From Gammaproteobacteria bacterium (GTDB lineage Bacteria > Pseudomonadota > Gammaproteobacteria > Steroidobacterales > Rariloculaceae), in assembly GCA_022825505.1 (NCBI GenBank), contig JAJDWR010000006.1, positions 10,476 to 74,475 on the forward strand: a DNA stretch of 64,000 nucleotides, written 5' to 3'. Below the pieces are notes generated by a model. That model saw only the letters and a program-made list of their open reading frames with translations. It was not told the DNA's origin and made no database searches. Positions 7,651-15,686 of the stretch are shown here, one piece after another. The number at the start of each line of letters is the position of its first letter. Position 1 is the stretch's first letter. Both the position numbers and the translations under genes were made by a program.

Positions 7651-7851
7651 GGCTACTCCCAGGTTAAGGATCGACGTGCATCGTGACTCCTGCAACCGAG
7701 GATTGTATATGCTGCACAGCGCCAGGGTGGAGCGGACCGCGACAGCGCCCGGTGCGCGATGAGTGAGCGCCCACATTCGTGTTAGTCTCGGGGGTTGAAG
7801 GGACCTGCACGCGGCCCCTTGCGCCTGTGCCTTACACATGGGGAAAACGAC

Positions 7852-10263
7852 ATGGCATATACGCTGATTGGCAACGATTTCGTGCCGCCGGATGTGCGCG
7901 GCAAGGTCACCGGGCAAGCCAAGTACGCCGAGGATTTTCGCGCCGAGGGCATGTTGTTCTGCAAGCTGCTGACCAGTTCCATGCCGCACGCGAGAGTACG
8001 CAATATCGATGCGTCCGCCGCGCTGGCCCTTGAAGGGGTACACGCGGTTCTGACCGCTGACGATGTACCGCCCGCGCAAGCACCCCGTTCCCCGGCATCT
8101 CCGATCCTCACCAACGAGCCCTGCTACGTGGGCGAACCCATTCTCGCGGTGGCCGCGGACGACGAGACCACAGCCCAGGACGCCATCGACCTCATCGAGC
8201 TTGACCTGGAACCCCTCCCCTTCACCTTCGATCCACTCGAGAGCCTGTACCCCGGCGGGCCCAACGCCCGCAGCGACGGCAACGTGACGGGCCGGAGCAT
8301 CCCGGTGCAGACGGTCAAGTGGACCGCCGGCGATTTTGCGGCCGTCGACGAGGGCCAGCTTCCCATGGGCCAGCCCATCACCGAGTGGGCCTATGGCGAC
8401 GTGGACGGGGGGTTCGAGGAAGCCGCCGTGGTAATCGACGAGAGCTTCGTCACCGCCGGCCTCTCCCATCACTGCATGGAACCGCGAAGTTGCATGGCCT
8501 ACTGGGAAAACGGCAAGTGCGTGCTGTACGGATCATCCCAGAGCCAGACGGCCATGGTCCCCGGGCTGTGCCAGTTGCTGGGCGTGGAACAGGAAGACCT
8601 CATCTACGTGGCGGAGACATGCGGCGGCGGTTTCGGCTCCAAGGGCGGGCCGTACCCGATCATGGCCGTGCCCGCGCTGCTGAGCCAGCAGACCGGCCGC
8701 CCCGTGATGCTGCGGATCACCCGCGCCGAGGAATACGGACTGGGCACCGCACGGGCCGGCTTCCAGGGCCGGCTGCGAATGGGCTTGAGAGAGGATGGCC
8801 GCATTCTCGCCCTGGACCTCTCCATCGTCCACGAGAACGGCCCCCACACGGGCTGGAGCGACAACGACTCGGCGGCGGATTCGGTGTCGATCCTCTACCA
8901 GCCGATGGCCATGCGCTACCGCGGTATCCCGGTGGAAACCAATACGCCGCCCCGGGGACCCCAGCGCGGCCCCGGGCAGAACCAGATCGCCGAGGCCGTC
9001 GAGCCCATCCTGGACAAGGCTGCGCGGGCGCTGGGCATCGACCAATTGGCAATACGGCGCATCAACTCGGCCGACAACGACGCCAGGATCGGAGGCCGCC
9101 AGGGCCCGGTGACCAGCGCATACCAGGACGAGACGCTGACCCAGGGCGCGGAACTGTTCAACTGGGAGGAAAAGCAGGCTCGAAGCGGCCAGCGCAACGG
9201 TTCAAAGGTCATCGGCATCGGTATCGGCCAGTGTTACCACTCGGCGGGACGCAACAGCTACGACGGACTGGTCCGGATCACTCCGGACGGCGTACTGCAC
9301 ATCCATACCGGCTGCGGCAATCTCGGCACGTATTCCCACACCGCCACCTCCCGGGTTGCAGCCGAAGTGCTCAGGCACGACTGGGACAACTGCGTCATCG
9401 TACGGGGCGACAGCCGCCGGCACCTGCCGTGGGCACCGACCCAGACAGGCAGCAATACCGCCTTCACCTGCACCCGCACCAACTACGTAGCCGCCATGGA
9501 CGCCGTGGAGAAACTCAAGGAAATCGCCGCCATGGACCTGGGAGGCGCGCCGGAGGATTACGACATCGGCGACGAGACCGTATTTGCCACGGACGATCCT
9601 TCCCGATCGCTCACCTACGCCGCCGCCGCGCAGCGCGCCATCGAACTGGGCGGGCGCTTCTCCGGCGAAGAGGCGCCGGAGGACATCCACGACGTCACGC
9701 GAATGGCCGTGGCCGGGGTCGCCGGCACCGGTCTGGTCGGGGTCGCGAAGGACAACCTGCGCCACGAAGGCGTGGTCCCGGCCATCGCCAGCGGCTTCAT
9801 CGAGATCGAATTGGACCTGGAAACCGGCAAGTTCGACGTCCTCGACTACGTGAGCGTGGCCGACTGCGGCACGGTGCTGCATCCCCAGGGCCTGTCCAAC
9901 CAGGTCAAGGGCGGTGCGGTGATGGGACTGGGCATGGCCTGCACCGAGCGCCACGTCTACGATTCCCAGATCGGCCTGCCGGCCAACGTCGGCTTCCACC
10001 AGGTCAAGCCCATGTCCTACCTGGACGTGCCCTCCACGATGGAGTGGGCGGCCGTGGACATCGCGGACCCGCAGAACCCCGTAGGCGCCAAGGGCGTCGG
10101 CGAGCCCATCCAGGGCTGTGCGTCGGCGGCGGTGCTGTGCGCGATCTCCGATGCGCTGGGCGGCTACGACTTCAACCGCGCACCGGTCAGCCCGGACATG
10201 GTGGTCAATGCCGCCGCCGGACAGCCGCAGTCCCATGGGCCGTTGCAGGTGAATACGGTCTGA
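7852..10263 (+). CDS. Xanthine dehydrogenase-family molybdopterin-binding (large) subunit
   Basis: KVTGQAKYAED, MEPR, GGGFGSKG, DCGTVLHP, GAKGVGEP. Confidence 0.92.
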   Translation: MAYTLIGNDFVPPDVRGKVTGQAKYAEDFRAEGMLFCKLLTSSMPHARVRNIDASAALALEGVHAVLTADDVPPAQAPRSPASPILTNEPCYVGEPILAVAADDETTAQDAIDLIELDLEPLPFTFDPLESLYPGGPNARSDGNVTGRSIPVQTVKWTAGDFAAVDEGQLPMGQPITEWAYGDVDGGFEEAAVVIDESFVTAGLSHHCMEPRSCMAYWENGKCVLYGSSQSQTAMVPGLCQLLGVEQEDLIYVAETCGGGFGSKGGPYPIMAVPALLSQQTGRPVMLRITRAEEYGLGTARAGFQGRLRMGLREDGRILALDLSIVHENGPHTGWSDNDSAADSVSILYQPMAMRYRGIPVETNTPPRGPQRGPGQNQIAEAVEPILDKAARALGIDQLAIRRINSADNDARIGGRQGPVTSAYQDETLTQGAELFNWEEKQARSGQRNGSKVIGIGIGQCYHSAGRNSYDGLVRITPDGVLHIHTGCGNLGTYSHTATSRVAAEVLRHDWDNCVIVRGDSRRHLPWAPTQTGSNTAFTCTRTNYVAAMDAVEKLKEIAAMDLGGAPEDYDIGDETVFATDDPSRSLTYAAAAQRAIELGGRFSGEEAPEDIHDVTRMAVAGVAGTGLVGVAKDNLRHEGVVPAIASGFIEIELDLETGKFDVLDYVSVADCGTVLHPQGLSNQVKGGAVMGLGMACTERHVYDSQIGLPANVGFHQVKPMSYLDVPSTMEWAAVDIADPQNPVGAKGVGEPIQGCASAAVLCAISDALGGYDFNRAPVSPDMVVNAAAGQPQSHGPLQVNTV

Positions 10264-10315: not shown

Positions 10316-10334
10316 ACGGAGTCGTTTGCACGTC

Positions 10335-11363
10335 ATGAAAGCGGTCATTCACACGTTGCTTGCAACGCTGATGGTGTGCGCACCGGGCCTTGCCGCGGCG
10401 CACCACTCCCCCTTCATCTACTTTGACGCGTCCCGGACCGTCGAGGCCGAAGGCGTCGTCACCGCCGTGAACTGGCGGAATCCCCATGCGACGTTCGAAC
10501 TGACGGCAGACGGCGTTTCGTGGGAGGTCGAAGCGAACGCAATCAGCATCCTGAGAAGAATGGACCTCGATGCGGACTCGGTCCGGGTGGGCGACGTCGT
10601 CACCGTGGCCGGTTGGCCTCCGAAGGACGGGAGCACGCGCATTTTCCTCACCAACATGCTGATCGAGGGCAGGTCGGAGATCATCCTGTGGCCGGGTGCG
10701 CCACCGCACTGGTCTGCGGACGAAACCGCGGGTTCTTCTGCAGTCTGGCTGGCATCGGAGGCGGATTTTGCAGACGAGGATGCGCCGGACGACATCTTTC
10801 ACGTCTGGAGCACGTCGCTGGCGGACGTTCCGGATGCCTTGATTTTCGATGGGGCCGTATTTCCCCTGACCGAAGCGGCCCAGGCCGCAAGAGCGGGCTA
10901 CGACATGTACGGCAATCCCATCATCGGAACGTGCATCGCCAAGGGCATGCCAACCATCATGGAACAGCCCTACCCGATGGAGTTCGAACAGGGCGACGGC
11001 GTCATCTACCTCAGGATGGAGGAAGGCGATATCGTACGGGAAATCCACATGGGCGCCGAACTGGCGAACGTGGAGCCTTCCCTGTTGGGCACTTCGGTGG
11101 GGCGTTGGGATGACGATACGCTGGTGGTGGAAACGACCGGCAGTACATGGCCCTACACCGACATGACCGGCGTCCCGAACTCCGAGGACAGCGTATTTGT
11201 GGAGCGCTTTACGCCCAGCAACGACGGCAGGCGGCTGGATTACGAAATGACGGTGACCAACCCCGAAATCTTCACCGAACCCGTCACCTTGGACAAGCAC
11301 TGGCTGTGGATCCCCGACGCGACGGTGGAGCCGTACGAGTGTCTTGTGGAAGCGGACGACTAG
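10335..11363 (+). CDS. Secreted DUF6152-type protein fused to an uncharacterised C-terminal domain
   Basis: Signal peptide ending AAA|HHS, WRNPH motif; C-terminal half has GTSVGRWDDDTLVVET and VERF..LDYEMTVTNP..YEC, shared with ORF 44618. Confidence 0.75.
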   Translation: MKAVIHTLLATLMVCAPGLAAAHHSPFIYFDASRTVEAEGVVTAVNWRNPHATFELTADGVSWEVEANAISILRRMDLDADSVRVGDVVTVAGWPPKDGSTRIFLTNMLIEGRSEIILWPGAPPHWSADETAGSSAVWLASEADFADEDAPDDIFHVWSTSLADVPDALIFDGAVFPLTEAAQAARAGYDMYGNPIIGTCIAKGMPTIMEQPYPMEFEQGDGVIYLRMEEGDIVREIHMGAELANVEPSLLGTSVGRWDDDTLVVETTGSTWPYTDMTGVPNSEDSVFVERFTPSNDGRRLDYEMTVTNPEIFTEPVTLDKHWLWIPDATVEPYECLVEADD

Positions 11364-11500: not shown

Positions 11501-12571
11501 ATGTTCAACTCCCACACGATTCGCGCAGCACTCCTGGCGCTGATCTCATCCACACTTGCCGCTTCGGCGCTCGCGCAGAATTTCCTGACCGACATTCCGG
11601 CAGGCAGCCGGGGCATGGTCAGCGGCCCCGAAATCGGCGAACGCATTCCCGATTTTTCCGCCTACGACCAGAACGGCAATCGGGTCAGCCTGGATGACGT
11701 GATGGGTCCGAACGGTGCCATGGTGGTATTTCACCGTTCGGCCGACTGGTGACCTTTCTGCAAGACCCAGCTCGTGCAGTTGGAAGCATCATTGGACGAT
11801 TACACCGCAGCCGGCCTGGGGGTGGTTGCGATCAGCTACGACACGGTCGACATCCTCAAGAGTTTCGCTGATCGGATGGGCGGATTCCGCTACTCCACGC
11901 TGGCCGACCCGAACTCCGAGATCATCGAGGCTTACGGTATCCGCAACCCCAACCCGGAGCCCGGCAGCCGCACGGACGGCATGGCCTTCCCCGGCACCTA
12001 CATCGTCGACACGGACGGCATCGTGCAGGACAAGTGGTTCGAGGACAGCCACCGAATCCGGCCTACCGCACAGACTGTACTCATGAAGACGTTCGGCGCC
12101 GACGGCGGCCGCCGCACCGAAGTGCAGTTGCCGCAGTTCGACTTCGCGGCCTACGCCACGCAGGACCAGATTCAGCCGGGCAATACCGTCCTAGTGGTGG
12201 CGGACATCGTTCTGCCCGAACGCATGCATCTCTATGCGCCGGGCTCGGACTACGTTGCCGCCGACCTGAACATCGTCGAGACCGAACACGTGCTGCAGGG
12301 CGCTCTGGAACTCCCGGAGCACGAAATCCTCTACCTGGAGCCCATCGACGAGAGCGTTCCCGTCTACTACGGAACAGCGCGATTGACGCGCGAAGTTTCC
12401 TTGTCACCGGCGTACCAGGAAGATTCGGTTGCGGTGGATGTCGTGCTGAGCTACCAGACCTGCGACGACGAAATCTGCTACCCGCCGGACGACTTCCAGT
12501 TCACGCTGCACTTCGACGTACTGCCCAACGACCGGGTACGGGCGCCGGAGGGCATCCGCCACGAGGGTTGA
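11501..12571 (+). CDS. Predicted selenoprotein: signal peptide + AhpC/TSA (redoxin) domain with UxxC + DsbD N-terminal-like domain, 356 aa, Sec84
   Basis: TGG TGA CCT TTC TGC (W-U-P-F-C) at 11747-11761; downstream ORF 11774 is in the same frame; redoxin motifs on both sides (PDFSAYDQNG, VVAISYD, LADP, PGTYIVD..G); C-terminal YQTCDDEICYPP. Confidence 0.88.
11750..11786 (+). promoter_or_regulatory. Putative bacterial SECIS element
   Basis: UGA at 11750; stem CCAGCT (11767-72) pairs with AGTTGG (11778-83); 5-nt loop CGUGC with G at position 2, about 20 nt after the UGA. Confidence 0.65.
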
Positions 12572-12694: not shown

Positions 12695-13081
12695 ATGCGC
12701 GCAATCGACGCTCGACTGATCCGCATCCTGAGCCGGCACCCCGGCATTCGTCTGGCGATGTTGTTCGGTTCTCACGCTAGAGGCCATCCCAGTTCGGACA
12801 GTGACATCGATCTCGCGCTGCTGGCGGAGAGTCCTCTTTCCGGCGCGACGATTCGCGAACTTGTGGAAGCGATCGGCGGTGAATTCGGTTGTCTAGTCGA
12901 TGTCGTCGACCTCTACCACGCGCCGCAGCCCATACTCGGACAAGTGTTCAAGGGGCGGCGGCTTCTGGGCGACAATCGGACCTACGCAGAGCTGCTAACC
13001 AGACACCTCATCGACAGCGCCGACTTCCTTCCGCTCCGGCAGCGAATCCTGGCCGAGAGGCAAGCCGAATGGACGCAGTGA
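12695..13081 (+). CDS. Minimal nucleotidyltransferase (MntA-like antitoxin, type VII TA)
   Basis: LFGSHARG..SDSDIDLA, VDVVDL. Confidence 0.88.
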   Translation: MRAIDARLIRILSRHPGIRLAMLFGSHARGHPSSDSDIDLALLAESPLSGATIRELVEAIGGEFGCLVDVVDLYHAPQPILGQVFKGRRLLGDNRTYAELLTRHLIDSADFLPLRQRILAERQAEWTQ

Positions 13082-13212
13082 TCGTCAGCGCGAATCTGGA
13101 GTCCCTGCGCCGGTGCGTGATACGCGTCCAGGAAAAGACGCCGGCAACAGTGGACGGACTGACCGAAGACCCGGACGCGCAGGGCATCCTGATGGTGTCG
13201 AGCGCTGCTTGA
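13069..13212 (+). pseudogene. Truncated HEPN/DUF86 (HepT-like) toxin
   Basis: Overlaps the MNT stop; MDAVIVSANLESLRRCVIRV...DPDAQ resembles a HepT N-terminus but ends after 47 aa with no RxxxxH motif. Confidence 0.7.
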
Positions 13213-13300
13213 AGGTCGCACCGGGACTTCTCGCCCGATATTGCCTGTAACGGTCGAACTTGAGGGGCGACTTGAGGGGTCACTTGAGGGGTCACTTGAC
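13200..13300 (-). pseudogene. Remnant of Fic-type C-terminal wHTH region with 12-bp TPQV tandem repeat
   Basis: (acttgaggggtc) x about 3.5 at 13258-13300; minus strand reads QVTPQVTPQVAPQVRPLQAISGEKSRCDLQAAL. Confidence 0.55.
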
Positions 13301-13403
13301 GAGCAGCACCGCACCCCCAGCAACCTGCACTTCCCGCCCAAGCTGTCGCCCCCGAAATTCCCGATGTATATTCGGCGCACCATGAGCGGCGCGCCTTGAT
13401 TCG

Positions 13404-15686
13404 ATGCAGACGGTACCGGTCATCAAGGACCTGGTTCTCCTAGGCGGCGGCCACAGCCACATCGCCGTTCTGAAGTCGTTCGGGATGCGGCCGATCCCGG
13501 GGGTTCGGCTTACGCTGATCAGCCGCGATATCGAGACCGCCTATTCCGGGATGCTGCCGGGACTGATTGCCGGTCACTATTCGTTTGATCAGGCTCATAT
13601 CGACCTCGTGCCGCTCGCCAGGTTCGCCGGAGCGCGCTTCTTCCACGATGAAGTCACGGATATCGATCTGGAAGCGCGGACCGTATCGCTGGCGAACCGG
13701 CCCCCAGTCGCCTACGACGTCCTTTCCGTCAACACCGGATCGACGCCCGCGACCCATGAAGTTGGCGGCGCCGACGATCATGTCGTACCCGTCAAGCCCA
13801 TCAATCGCTTTCTGGGACACTGGGAAAGCCTGCTCGAGCGCGTCGAAGGGTATGGAGGCGGGCGGCGTGCCAACATGGCCGACGACGACGGAGTGCGGGT
13901 CGGCGTGGTGGGAGGTGGCACCGGCGGGGTCGAATTGTGTCTCGCGGTTCATCACGCGCTGACGACACAGCCGAACCCACCGGAGGCGCTTGCGCTGGAA
14001 CTCCTCACCGCCGACGAGGAGATTCTTCAGGAGCATCCCAAAAGCGTGGTCCGACGGTTCAGACGGATTCTTGCCGAGCGAGGCATCGAGGTGCACACCG
14101 GCACTCGGGTGACGCGGGTCAGGCCAAACACGCTGGTCGATGCCGACGGACGCGAGTTTCGGTTCCACGAGATTCTCTGGGTTACCCAGGCCGGTGCACC
14201 GCATTGGCTGAGCAGTTCGGGAATCCAGATAGACGGGCAGGGATTCATGCTCGTCAACGACCATCTCCAGTCGCCATCCCACGGTAGTGTCTTCGGTGCC
14301 GGCGACGTGGTGGCCATGGCAAACAACCCCCGCCCCAAGGCGGGCGTTTTTGCCGTTCGCCAGGGGCGGCCGCTTACCGAAAACCTGCGCCGGTACCTGT
14401 TGAAGAGGCCCTTGATCCGGTATCGACCCCAGCGGAGATTCCTCAAGCTGGTCAGCACAGGAGATCGCTACGCAGTGGCCTCGCGCGGTCCGTGGTCCGC
14501 CGAGGGACGCTGGGTGTGGCGCTGGAAGGACTGGATCGACTCGCGCTTCATGGAGAAATTCCAGGTTCTCCCAGACATGGAACCCGGGGACGAGACGCCC
14601 GAGGTCCCGGCGCCGCTACGTGATCCCGCAATCGACGACGACACCGGCGATCCCATGCGTTGCGGAGGCTGCGGTGCGAAGGTCAGTGCCGATGTGCTGG
14701 CGGCTGCGCTGGCGGATATCCGCACCGCGTCCAGGGATGACGTGGTCGTCGGACTGGATGCACCGGACGACGCGGCGATGGTCGCCGTTCCACCCGACAG
14801 GCTCTCGGTGCTCTCGGTGGACGGCTTTCGACCAATGATCGATGACCCCTGGCTGTTCGGGCGAATCACCGCCAACCACTGCCTGGGCGATGTCTATGCC
14901 ATGGGTGCGGAACCCCAGGCGGCCATGACCATGGCGACGCTGCCGGTGTGGCCGGAAGACAAGCTGGTGGACGAACTCAGGCAGATGCTGCTCGGCGCCC
15001 TGCATGTCTTCGATCGGGAGGGCGTCGCGCTGGTAGGAGGCCATACGGGTGAAGGCGCTGAGTTGACCCTGGGATTCACGGTCACCGGATTGATCGAATC
15101 GGATCGGGCGCTGCGCAAGTCCGCATTGCGGCCGGGTGACGTCCTGGTGCTGACCAAGCCCGTAGGTACCGGAACACTGCTCGCAGCCGACATGCGCGGC
15201 AAAGTTCGGGGCCAATGGCTTCAAGGGGCCATCGAATCCATGCTCGTTTCCTGCAGAAACGCCGGAGAGACTCTCGGAAAACACGGCGCCCATGCCTGCA
15301 CCGACATTACGGGCTTCGGGCTGGCCGGTCATCTCCTGGAGATGCTCGGCGACGGTTCCCTGGGCGCGCTCATCGATCTCGACGCGCTGCCCCTACTCCC
15401 GGGCGCACTCGAAACTGTCGAGACGGGCATACTTTCAACCTTGCAGCCCAAGAACGAGCGCTTCGCCGCTCAGGTTGCGGCCACCGACGAGAATAGGAAA
15501 CGAGCCGAGTTTGCCCTGCTGTTCGATCCCCAGACCGCCGGGGGCCTGCTTGCGGGCGTGCCGCGCGAGAGCGTCCGGGACTGCGTAACCGAGCTGAAAA
15601 CTCAAGGCTACTCCTATACCGCGGTAATCGGAGAGATCGTGGATGCAGATGGGTGGGAAAGGCGGGTTCGTCTCACGACAGCATAG
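13404..15686 (+). CDS. selD: Selenide, water dikinase fused to N-terminal FAD-dependent (NADH dehydrogenase-like) oxidoreductase
   Basis: LLGGGHSH, VVGGGTGGVE, FGAGD; MRCGGCGAKV, DDAA, DVYAMG, GGHT, LTKPVGTG, TDITGFGLAGHL, DPQTAGGLL. Confidence 0.93.
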   Translation: MQTVPVIKDLVLLGGGHSHIAVLKSFGMRPIPGVRLTLISRDIETAYSGMLPGLIAGHYSFDQAHIDLVPLARFAGARFFHDEVTDIDLEARTVSLANRPPVAYDVLSVNTGSTPATHEVGGADDHVVPVKPINRFLGHWESLLERVEGYGGGRRANMADDDGVRVGVVGGGTGGVELCLAVHHALTTQPNPPEALALELLTADEEILQEHPKSVVRRFRRILAERGIEVHTGTRVTRVRPNTLVDADGREFRFHEILWVTQAGAPHWLSSSGIQIDGQGFMLVNDHLQSPSHGSVFGAGDVVAMANNPRPKAGVFAVRQGRPLTENLRRYLLKRPLIRYRPQRRFLKLVSTGDRYAVASRGPWSAEGRWVWRWKDWIDSRFMEKFQVLPDMEPGDETPEVPAPLRDPAIDDDTGDPMRCGGCGAKVSADVLAAALADIRTASRDDVVVGLDAPDDAAMVAVPPDRLSVLSVDGFRPMIDDPWLFGRITANHCLGDVYAMGAEPQAAMTMATLPVWPEDKLVDELRQMLLGALHVFDREGVALVGGHTGEGAELTLGFTVTGLIESDRALRKSALRPGDVLVLTKPVGTGTLLAADMRGKVRGQWLQGAIESMLVSCRNAGETLGKHGAHACTDITGFGLAGHLLEMLGDGSLGALIDLDALPLLPGALETVETGILSTLQPKNERFAAQVAATDENRKRAEFALLFDPQTAGGLLAGVPRESVRDCVTELKTQGYSYTAVIGEIVDADGWERRVRLTTA

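Follow-up and report, generated by a model that had tools for sequence, protein, structure and literature searches.

A probable exported selenoprotein, concealed by an in-frame UGA, that joins a UxxC redoxin to an nDsbD-like domain

The gene considered here lies on the forward strand, at positions 11501-12571, of a 64,000-nucleotide stretch of DNA (the window; bases 10476-74475 of contig 51, JAJDWR010000006.1, of assembly GCA_022825505.1) from a gammaproteobacterium of the family Rariloculaceae, and all of the features described within it are on the same strand. It begins with an ATG at 11501 and after 83 codons meets a TGA at 11750-11752, beyond which the same frame stays open to a further TGA at 12569-12571. 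The first open reading frame (11501-11752) ends in ...VVFHRSADW-TGA and the frame goes on as P-F-C-K-T-Q-L. If the internal TGA, which is codon 84, is read as selenocysteine (Sec, U), the whole gene comprises 356 codons plus the terminal TGA and its product around codon 84 is ...VVFHRSADW-U-PFCKTQLVQLE... An earlier reading made from the letters alone (the sequence-only reading) had described this 83-residue frame and its continuation into W-U-P-F-C, and every element of it stands at the position it had given. We consider it very probable that 11501-12571 constitutes a single selenoprotein gene with an exported product, recoded by way of UGA and a selenocysteine insertion sequence (SECIS), this product being likely to be a thiol:disulfide reductase with a domain resembling the N-terminal domain of DsbD (nDsbD). 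The sequence-only reading, too, had at its centre an exported UxxC selenoprotein that is hidden from annotation and carries an nDsbD-like domain, and the UGA, a SECIS-like hairpin, the Sec machinery and both domains could all be recovered by the analysis reported here.

The case for recoding begins with the conservation of the UGA. In 40 relatives and the genome itself there are 13 full-length matches (its own included, 70-100% identity), each with exactly one TGA, and SADW*P[FY]CK is read in all 13. The family search covered all 85 genomes at E <= 1e-45 and gave matches in 21 of them, from 4 of 14 genera; a TGA is present in all 22 family copies that cover residue 84 (64-100% identity), and 22 of 22 orthologous copies conserve the reading frame before and after the TGA as well as the hairpin downstream of it. 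Three family matches without a stop span residues 154-355 only, and two others without a stop, at 34% identity, come from one family genome. Cysteine occupies the same column elsewhere: among the best 120 relatives listed from a database of 5.8 billion proteins, all 24 full-length homologues have Cys at residue 84, in the form RSADWCP[FYW]CK. Both states are found in a set of 80 named genome loci, which contain 74 copies of the motif, 61 of them TGA forms and 13 Cys forms; seven loci that did not fit the motif expression are excluded. Homologues had been predicted to carry either TGA or Cys at codon 84, and this is what the family copies and the full-length homologues respectively contain.

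The sequence on either side of the TGA also evolves as coding sequence. Among 19 orthologues third codon positions vary most, both upstream of the TGA (46 of 50, against 28 and 20 of 50 for first and second positions) and downstream of it (75 of 80, against 27 and 22 of 80), and no in-frame stop other than TGA-84 was found in these orthologues. Taken together, the conserved TGA, the Cys homologues and the coding signature exclude for practical purposes a sequencing error, a nonsense mutation or a pair of genes. Comparative evidence shows the UGA at 11750-11752 to be recoded as selenocysteine 84, the first residue of U-P-F-C, an assignment to which the alignment with the CxxC of ResA, considered below, also contributes.

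In four runs no other letter was seen at 11750-11752, but no contig spans the TGA with 31 letters to its left and right. In two DNA runs contigs reach both flanks of the TGA yet break at 11734-11776, a stretch of sequence shared by several related genes in the samples. As no contig bridges the TGA, the real argument against a sequencing error is provided by the many independent genomes. At the same place (11734-11776) contigs from sponge metagenomes in runs X3, X5 and X18 break and several different flanks join, from which it follows that in these sponge communities the RSADW-TGA-PFCK core is common to several different genes. Contigs from RNA libraries match 12165-12326 at 100% (X17) and 12185-12571 at lower identity (X18), matches which are no demonstration of transcription.

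The sequence-only reading had made its case dependent on selA, selB and tRNA-Sec, and the genome contains them. On its contig 20, selA (543.9 bits), selB (313.6 bits) and tRNA-Sec (selC; 82.2 bits) lie side by side, while a selD match is found inside the window at 14658-15569 (283.1 bits), and all four are above their curated cut-offs. A tRNA scan of the window returned none, tRNA-Sec being on the other contig.

A SECIS-like hairpin follows the UGA. Its arms are at 11767-11772 and 11778-11783 and its loop, CGUGC, at 11773-11777 (CCAGCT / CGTGC / AGTTGG in the DNA), with the stem beginning 14 nt and the loop 20 nt after the TGA; a hairpin about 20 nt downstream had been noticed in the sequence-only reading and corresponds to this conserved helix of 6-7 base pairs at 11767-11783. 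RNAalifold run on the 22 family sequences gives exactly the same helix, 100% of whose cells are paired, and one of its pairs alternates between G-C (14), A-U (5) and G-U (3) and is never A.C. For a broader view of covariation we used 101 Sec-form sequences (22 from the family and 79 from metagenomes; 99 distinct), the metagenome contigs having been scanned with the pattern ADW-TGA-P-x-C-K only, which ends before the helix and retrieved at least 120 stretches, from 80 loci. In this set 92.2% of the 693 cells of a seven-pair version of the helix are paired and four pairs are compensatory. Pair 24-40 is GC in 57, CG in 32, UG in three and something else in seven; pair 27-37 is GC in 83, AU in 13, GU in two and other in one; and pair 28-36 is CG in 93 and UA in six. 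The innermost pair, 30-34, with CG in 32, GC in 22 and other combinations in 45, is optional. The covariation score is 0.267 against a shuffle mean of 0.121 and is reached by none of 500 shuffles, a result that does not translate into a probability because the sequences are related. When the register was slid, 10.7-45.6% of cells were paired, compared with 92.2% in the true register.

The Cys forms serve as a natural control for this structure. Within the same genome set 55 of the 61 TGA copies, as against 2 of the 13 Cys copies, have an intact six-pair helix, and most Cys forms retain the Q-L-x-[QE]-L peptide yet lose the helix. The helix therefore accompanies the UGA, as a SECIS should, and the hairpin, with a GU-containing loop, behaves as expected of a bacterial SECIS bound by SelB. 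A hairpin within a coding region that combines clean covariation with a negative control in the Cys forms makes a useful test case for models of bacterial SECIS elements.

It might instead be argued that the TGA is a true stop, created by nonsense mutation or assembly error or separating two genes, or else that it specifies a standard amino acid. Gene callers do stop there, and the gene's own terminator is likewise TGA; 96 of the best 120 listed database relatives start after residue 84, as the sequence-only reading had foreseen when it supposed that annotation would split the gene, and 83 of these 96 start at residue 92, which is the GTG at 11773-11775 in the hairpin loop. The false start chosen by gene callers thus lies within the SECIS loop itself. 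A true stop, however, leaves the identity of the TGA in 22 of 22 family copies and 61 further genome copies without explanation, as it does the coding signature that runs on across it, and it would leave the gene in two pieces, one a signal peptide with half a thioredoxin fold, the other a product that has neither a signal peptide nor the first active-site residue. Against a standard amino acid, the homologues carry Cys at this column and not Trp or Gly. We regard termination or standard decoding as extremely unlikely. With recoding preferred, it follows that a large family has been cut at its UGA in public protein sets, often with the GTG of the SECIS loop as the false start, so that selenoprotein counts are too low for Acidobacteriota and for sponge-associated bacteria.

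The spread of the family was scanned with one genome per species, which gave at least 473 relatives, and the counts that follow are from the best 80 of these. Most belong to Acidobacteriota (Bryobacterales, Terriglobia and Vicinamibacterales), with a few from Acidimicrobiia, Betaproteobacteria and Gammaproteobacteria, and it is among these genome loci that Sec forms exceed Cys forms by 61 to 13. An unrooted FastTree phylogeny, computed from 90 read-through proteins after the Sec/Cys column had been replaced by X and rows with short flanks excluded, places the family of the window in one clade (support 100), sister to two Sec forms from marine Acidobacteriota (98). The Sec/Cys label changes seven times on this tree, and at least six of the changes are forced by well-supported branches; natural Sec and Cys forms adjoin one another across these switches, which adds to the value of the family for comparison. 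The stretch, or parts of it, is contained in runs labelled as sponge, marine and coral-reef metagenomes. At one Solibacteraceae locus (L047) two Sec-form copies of the family occur within 9 kb.

Turning to the product, its N-terminus (MFNSHTIRAALLALISSTLAASALA|QN) resembles a cleavable signal peptide of the secretory (Sec) type. The predicted peptide has 25 residues (11501-11575), with R8 in a basic n-region, a hydrophobic core and an A-x-A site ending in ...ALA|QN. Mean Kyte-Doolittle hydropathy is 1.96 over residues 10-24 and does not exceed 1.47 anywhere else in the protein, and the same signal-like layout is present in the orthologues and the Cys homologues. The ALA|Q site noted in the sequence-only reading is among these features. 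From these features we infer that the product is exported and cleaved after Ala25 and that the mature protein is periplasmic.

Two domains follow. With the read-through product as query, Pfam finds AhpC-TSA (PF00578) at residues 45-177 (8.4e-29; 100.5 bits against a cut-off of 26), Redoxin (PF08534) at residues 46-193 (6.3e-16) and DsbD_N (PF11412) at residues 224-334 (3.3e-08; 34 bits against 25). The fusion of a UxxC redoxin with a DsbD_N-like domain therefore has a Pfam match on both halves, and the only sequence match of the C-terminal half in the PDB is to a DsbD N-terminal domain. The first of the two, an AhpC/TSA-Redoxin domain of thioredoxin fold (residues 45-193; 11633-12079), is assigned by Pfam, Foldseek and PDB sequence matches. 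In the AlphaFold2 model most of its residues have a predicted local distance difference test (pLDDT) value above 90, and Foldseek recognises in it a fold like that of peroxiredoxins (Prx) and BCP. Its closest PDB sequences are AhpE, BCP and ResA. The Foldseek search was made with the whole model and gave only Prx-fold matches, all to domain 1.

Sec84 has its partner in Cys87 (11759-11761), which completes the UxxC and is invariant in the homologue alignment A1, and the way in which the two residues align bears directly on what the domain might do. A periplasmic peroxidase could be imagined, in which the Sec-containing AhpC/TSA domain reduces peroxides and is recycled through the nDsbD-like domain. 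AhpC/TSA is indeed the best Pfam family, BCP, AhpE and AhpC are the closest structures or PDB sequences, databases label the Cys forms 'peroxiredoxin', and an envelope peroxiredoxin fed by a DsbD-like protein has been described in PMC3322552. In HMMER alignments to BCP, AhpE and ApPrx, however, Cys87 falls on the peroxidatic Cys while Sec84 falls on the Thr of PxxxTxxC, the conserved peroxiredoxin Pro column holds Arg79 or Ser80, and the catalytic Arg column holds Pro164 (in BCP and AhpE, the only alignments reaching that column). Of PxxxTxxC and the catalytic Arg, Cys87 alone is retained, the Pro, the Thr and the Arg being replaced by Arg/Ser, Sec and Pro. Furthermore, known Sec-peroxiredoxins, as characterised in the passages of PMC13188914 that deal with them, have TxxU with a peroxidatic Sec, whereas here Sec lies three residues earlier in a motif of CxxC type. 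A peroxidase is consequently an unlikely reading.

The TxxC of peroxiredoxins corresponds to the CxxC of thioredoxins, and the proline at the position of the peroxiredoxin Arg is one that we take to be the cis-Pro of thioredoxin-fold oxidoreductases. In the ResA chains 4nmu and 3c71 the two cysteines of the motif that opens helix 1, WCKPC and WCPHC, are matched by Sec84 and Cys87. The protein misses the curated cut-offs for ResA (44 against 170 bits), TlpA (19.6 against 230) and DsbE (18.9 against 123), and by its alignments it would work like the ResA/TlpA/CcmG-type oxidoreductases without membership of those curated families. It does have the combination of PF00578 (100.5 bits) with UxxC (W-U-P-F-C) that marks the Prx-like thiol:disulfide oxidoreductase selenoproteins. 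With Sec84 and Cys87 at the CxxC positions of ResA, and with none of the peroxiredoxin Pro, Thr and Arg retained, the protein is most likely a thiol:disulfide (selenylsulfide) reductase.

The second, DsbD_N-like domain (residues 224-334; 12170-12502) is of the immunoglobulin fold, modelled by AlphaFold2 as all-beta with pLDDT above 90. It contains the pair Cys321...Cys326 (12461-12478) within residues 318-329, YQTCDDEICYPP, and the pair is invariant in alignment A1. The match to the DsbD N-terminal domain 5nhi is weak (E 0.29); with one gap it lays SYQTCDD-EICYPP on TYQGCADAGFCYPP, aligning Cys321 and Cys326 with the two cysteines of YQGCADAGFCYPP in that chain. The Cys pair is kept in all 42 long metagenome copies with a complete 3' end, and six other complete copies are short, two being redoxin-only and four apparently truncated. 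A redox motif of nDsbD type, as had been proposed, is therefore borne out by a DsbD_N match above cut-off, an invariant C-x4-C pair and the 5nhi alignment. Pfam finds no DsbD_TM on the product, which does not have the alpha-beta-gamma organisation of DsbD. Beyond the domain is a conserved C-terminal tail (LPNDRVRAPEGIRHEG; 12521-12568) with the family consensus PLDRxRAPExIxH, evident in the homologue alignments A1 and A5 and in the complex model described next.

Modelling suggests that these parts are packed together. AlphaFold2 with a 21-row alignment gives a mean pLDDT of 88.4 and a predicted template modelling (pTM) score of 0.81, which points to a fixed arrangement of the two domains. For a model of the complex, the protein of the window was represented by a natural Cys homologue with 38% identity to it, P0112, whose two domains were paired. 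The ipSAE of this pair of domains is 0.83, against 0.00 for the best control, a mark that is reached by 58 of 80 solved complexes and by 2 of 110 mismatched pairs. Agreement between runs is at least 98% of contacts, and partner pLDDT is at least 90. Solved complexes of nDsbD with thioredoxin-fold partners exist, and part of this result may therefore be memory. In the P0112 model residues 75-78, 80-81 and 83-85, which flank the CxxC, contact residues 213-224 in the first strand of domain 2 and residues 343-357 of the tail (PLDRQRAPE...), and the tightest pairs include K83-D346 and D77-R349, equivalent to K88/D344 and D82/R347 in the protein of the window. We read this as two domains forming one unit, in which the conserved tail would be placed on the active site.

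Several observations weigh against parts of this interpretation. The signal peptide call depends only on inspection by eye and hydropathy. No curated NCBIfam family takes the protein, the best of 19 listed being SelL_rel_redox at 47.9 bits against a cut-off of 120. Across the 80 genome loci there is no conserved neighbour (CcdA, DsbD or substrate) beyond the gene itself and an antisense shadow open reading frame, and the next-largest cluster of neighbours is found at 8 of 80. In Rfam the hairpin has no match, even with E allowed up to 10 over 11650-11900, and its 67-nt context folds no more stably than shuffled sequence (z +0.85); the 23-nt hairpin by itself has a folding energy of -6.5 kcal/mol (z -1.76), and 11 of 200 shuffles do as well. 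Because the energy is unremarkable, the argument for the hairpin rests on covariation and not on energy. Part of the helix comes with the peptide Q-L-V-[QE]-L owing to the CAGCTG palindrome; the synonymous-site choices of the helix are not explained by the peptide. With respect to the two redox centres, the domain-2 Cys pair (323/328 in P0112) is absent from the named interface residues, although an unnamed residue is not necessarily a non-contacting one, and as it is the tail rather than the Cys pair that is found at the modelled active site, a direct intramolecular relay is unsupported by this one test.

Bearing these points in mind, a mechanism can be sketched for the predicted reductase. 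Sec84 would be the attacking nucleophile, and the oxidised form would be a Sec84-Cys87 selenylsulfide. The nDsbD-like domain, with its invariant C-x4-C, may link the redoxin to the envelope reducing pathway, which is the weakest step of the scheme, and it might do so either as the electron entry point or as a second station that passes electrons on; the protein could in this manner possess its own internal electron relay, as the sequence-only reading had supposed. The model of the Cys homologue suggests that at rest the tail (DRxRAP) would cover the D-W-[U/C]-P-x-C-K surface, in which case electrons could pass from one redox centre to the other only once the tail is displaced, or else between molecules.

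Electrons could also flow the opposite way through the same selenoprotein. In DsbD the thioredoxin-fold domain reduces the immunoglobulin-fold alpha domain, and by analogy the redoxin might act like DsbD gamma, being reduced by a membrane DsbD or CcdA and handing electrons to its own nDsbD-like domain, which would then reduce other periplasmic clients, so that the protein would be a soluble gamma-plus-alpha module. Both domain types and both invariant Cys/Sec pairs are present here, and the Cys pair, unnamed in the modelled interface, would be free for outside partners. On the other hand, no CcdA or DsbD gene is linked at the 80 loci, and the redoxin is nearer to clients of the Prx, BCP and ResA type, no DsbD chain being found in the best 60 of 154 PDB matches (E up to 0.01). 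This direction of flow seems rather doubtful to us.

A broader proposal can be put forward only tentatively, and as a whole it may well prove wrong. The family may be a distinct and widespread one of exported two-station selenoproteins, in which a Sec site and an nDsbD-like Cys pair are gated by the conserved tail, and may represent a selenium-dependent branch of the DsbD pathway in the envelope of Acidobacteriota and some marine symbionts, with co-expression with Ndh-SelD possible in the genus of the window. To our knowledge, all known reducing pathways of the periplasm use cysteine alone. A Sec client fused to an nDsbD-like domain would make it possible to compare selenium directly with sulfur in the thiol-disulfide exchange of the envelope.

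The selenoprotein class itself is already known, as is the Ndh-SelD fusion that adjoins the gene. Selenoproteins of the UxxC Prx-like kind have appeared in lists since 2004-2008 (passages in PMC13188914, PMC9312934 and PMC2398784); a Prx-like thiol:disulfide oxidoreductase with PF00578 and UxxC or UxxU is 'predicted with high confidence' in the corresponding entries of PMC13188914 and PMC9312934, and 225 Sec and 2,740 Cys sequences of 'Prx-like 1' are given for the ocean metagenomes of the Global Ocean Sampling in PMC2398784. The present protein resembles these in having PF00578 and a UxxC with Sec first, and in being predicted from Sec/Cys pairs. It appears to differ in that the passages describing Prx-like selenoproteins mention no DsbD_N-like domain, signal peptide or tail. 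The family Unknown_3 was also considered, and with three conserved cysteines including a CxxC in the passage describing it, it does not fit the nDsbD-like domain. In the literature searched, supplements aside, neither the nDsbD-like fusion nor the conserved tail is described, nor are the dominance of Sec forms in Acidobacteriota and the systematic truncation in databases.

Likenesses to other systems are partial in a similar way. With nDsbD and its partners (CcmG/TlpA/ResA-type proteins, DsbC and cDsbD) the protein shares PF11412 and two cysteines in a YQxC...CYxP context, as well as a U/C-x-x-C in the first domain that aligns with that of ResA. Unlike DsbD it has no membrane domain, and its second motif is C-x4-C where 5nhi has C-x5-C; unlike the nDsbD systems it carries partner and alpha-like domain on one polypeptide and has Sec in place of the nucleophilic Cys. 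In the ScsB-TlpA-PprX envelope reducing pathway, as outlined in PMC3322552, a DsbD-type donor feeds thioredoxin-fold and AhpC/TSA-type envelope proteins. In that pathway the components are, according to the outline, separate Cys-only proteins and PprX is a true peroxiredoxin, whereas here the catalytic residues of peroxiredoxins are missing. Sec-peroxiredoxins of the TxxU type have the same fold, the same Pfam family and a selenoprotein nature in common with this protein; in those Sec is peroxidatic, while here it replaces the conserved Thr and a Cys holds the peroxidatic position. Finally, the SelL-related redox proteins (NF040769) match at residues 48-148 and have an AhpC/TSA-like fold with the redox motif in the same place, but at 47.9 bits against 120 the protein is not a member.

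The genome holds further genes related to this one. A second selenoprotein on contig 62 (about 93766-94338, forward strand) is redoxin-only, with a signal peptide and some 205 residues, and reads ...NRSADW-TGA-PFCKNQLVELEQ...; it shares the RSADW-U-PFCK motif and is without the DsbD_N-like domain. A 731-nt contig from the X18 RNA library matches the flanks of this paralogue across its TGA. On contig 5 there is one canonical DsbD (DsbD_N and DsbD_TM), which is the only DsbD_TM match in the genome. On contig 4 (44241-44991, reverse strand) the gene for a stand-alone exported nDsbD-like protein (LELQGCADIGYCYLP) is immediately followed by that for a TlpA-like thioredoxin (FWATWCAPC), so that both modules of the fusion also occur unfused, with their order reversed.

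Downstream of the selenoprotein gene, beginning 0.8 kb away, is a fusion of a Pyr_redox_2 (Ndh-like) domain with SelD (13404-15686, forward strand, 760 codons), which includes the selD match at 14658-15569 and a CxxC at residue 420 and is the genome's only selD match above the family cut-off. It corresponds to a known fusion (Pyr_redox_2 with AIRS/AIRS_C and a CxxC at the junction), reported for marine bacteria in passages of PMC2398784, but its position beside the selenoprotein gene is specific to the genus. In 7 of 8 genus genomes with enough flank, Ndh-selD follows the gene directly and in the same orientation, at a distance of 9 nt in one (G015) and of about 100-120 nt in two others. This arrangement might be taken to mean that the protein handles selenium, reducing periplasmic selenium compounds or passing them to the neighbouring Ndh-SelD. 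Such a role is very unlikely, as none of the 4 genomes of the second (sister) genus has the linkage, neither selD nor Ndh is near the gene at any of 160 other loci, and SelD is cytoplasmic whereas the selenoprotein carries a signal peptide.

Other neighbours vary between genomes. In the window the selenoprotein gene is separated from Ndh-selD by a Polbeta-type nucleotidyltransferase gene (12695-13081, forward strand), an insertion that three other genus genomes share (3 of 7 relatives) and that is absent where the two genes abut. The stretch after it, 13078-13400, opens with a 44-codon frame followed by several stops, and because of these stops it may be a decayed partner gene; a tblastn match in this interval is probably shared non-coding or decayed sequence. 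Upstream of the selenoprotein gene the window contains a molybdenum subunit of the xanthine-dehydrogenase type (7795-10263) and then, between the two, the gene for a DUF6152 protein (10326-10700, forward strand), which is conserved at that position in 5 of 8 genus genomes examined, is missing in one and has only distant matches elsewhere in two.

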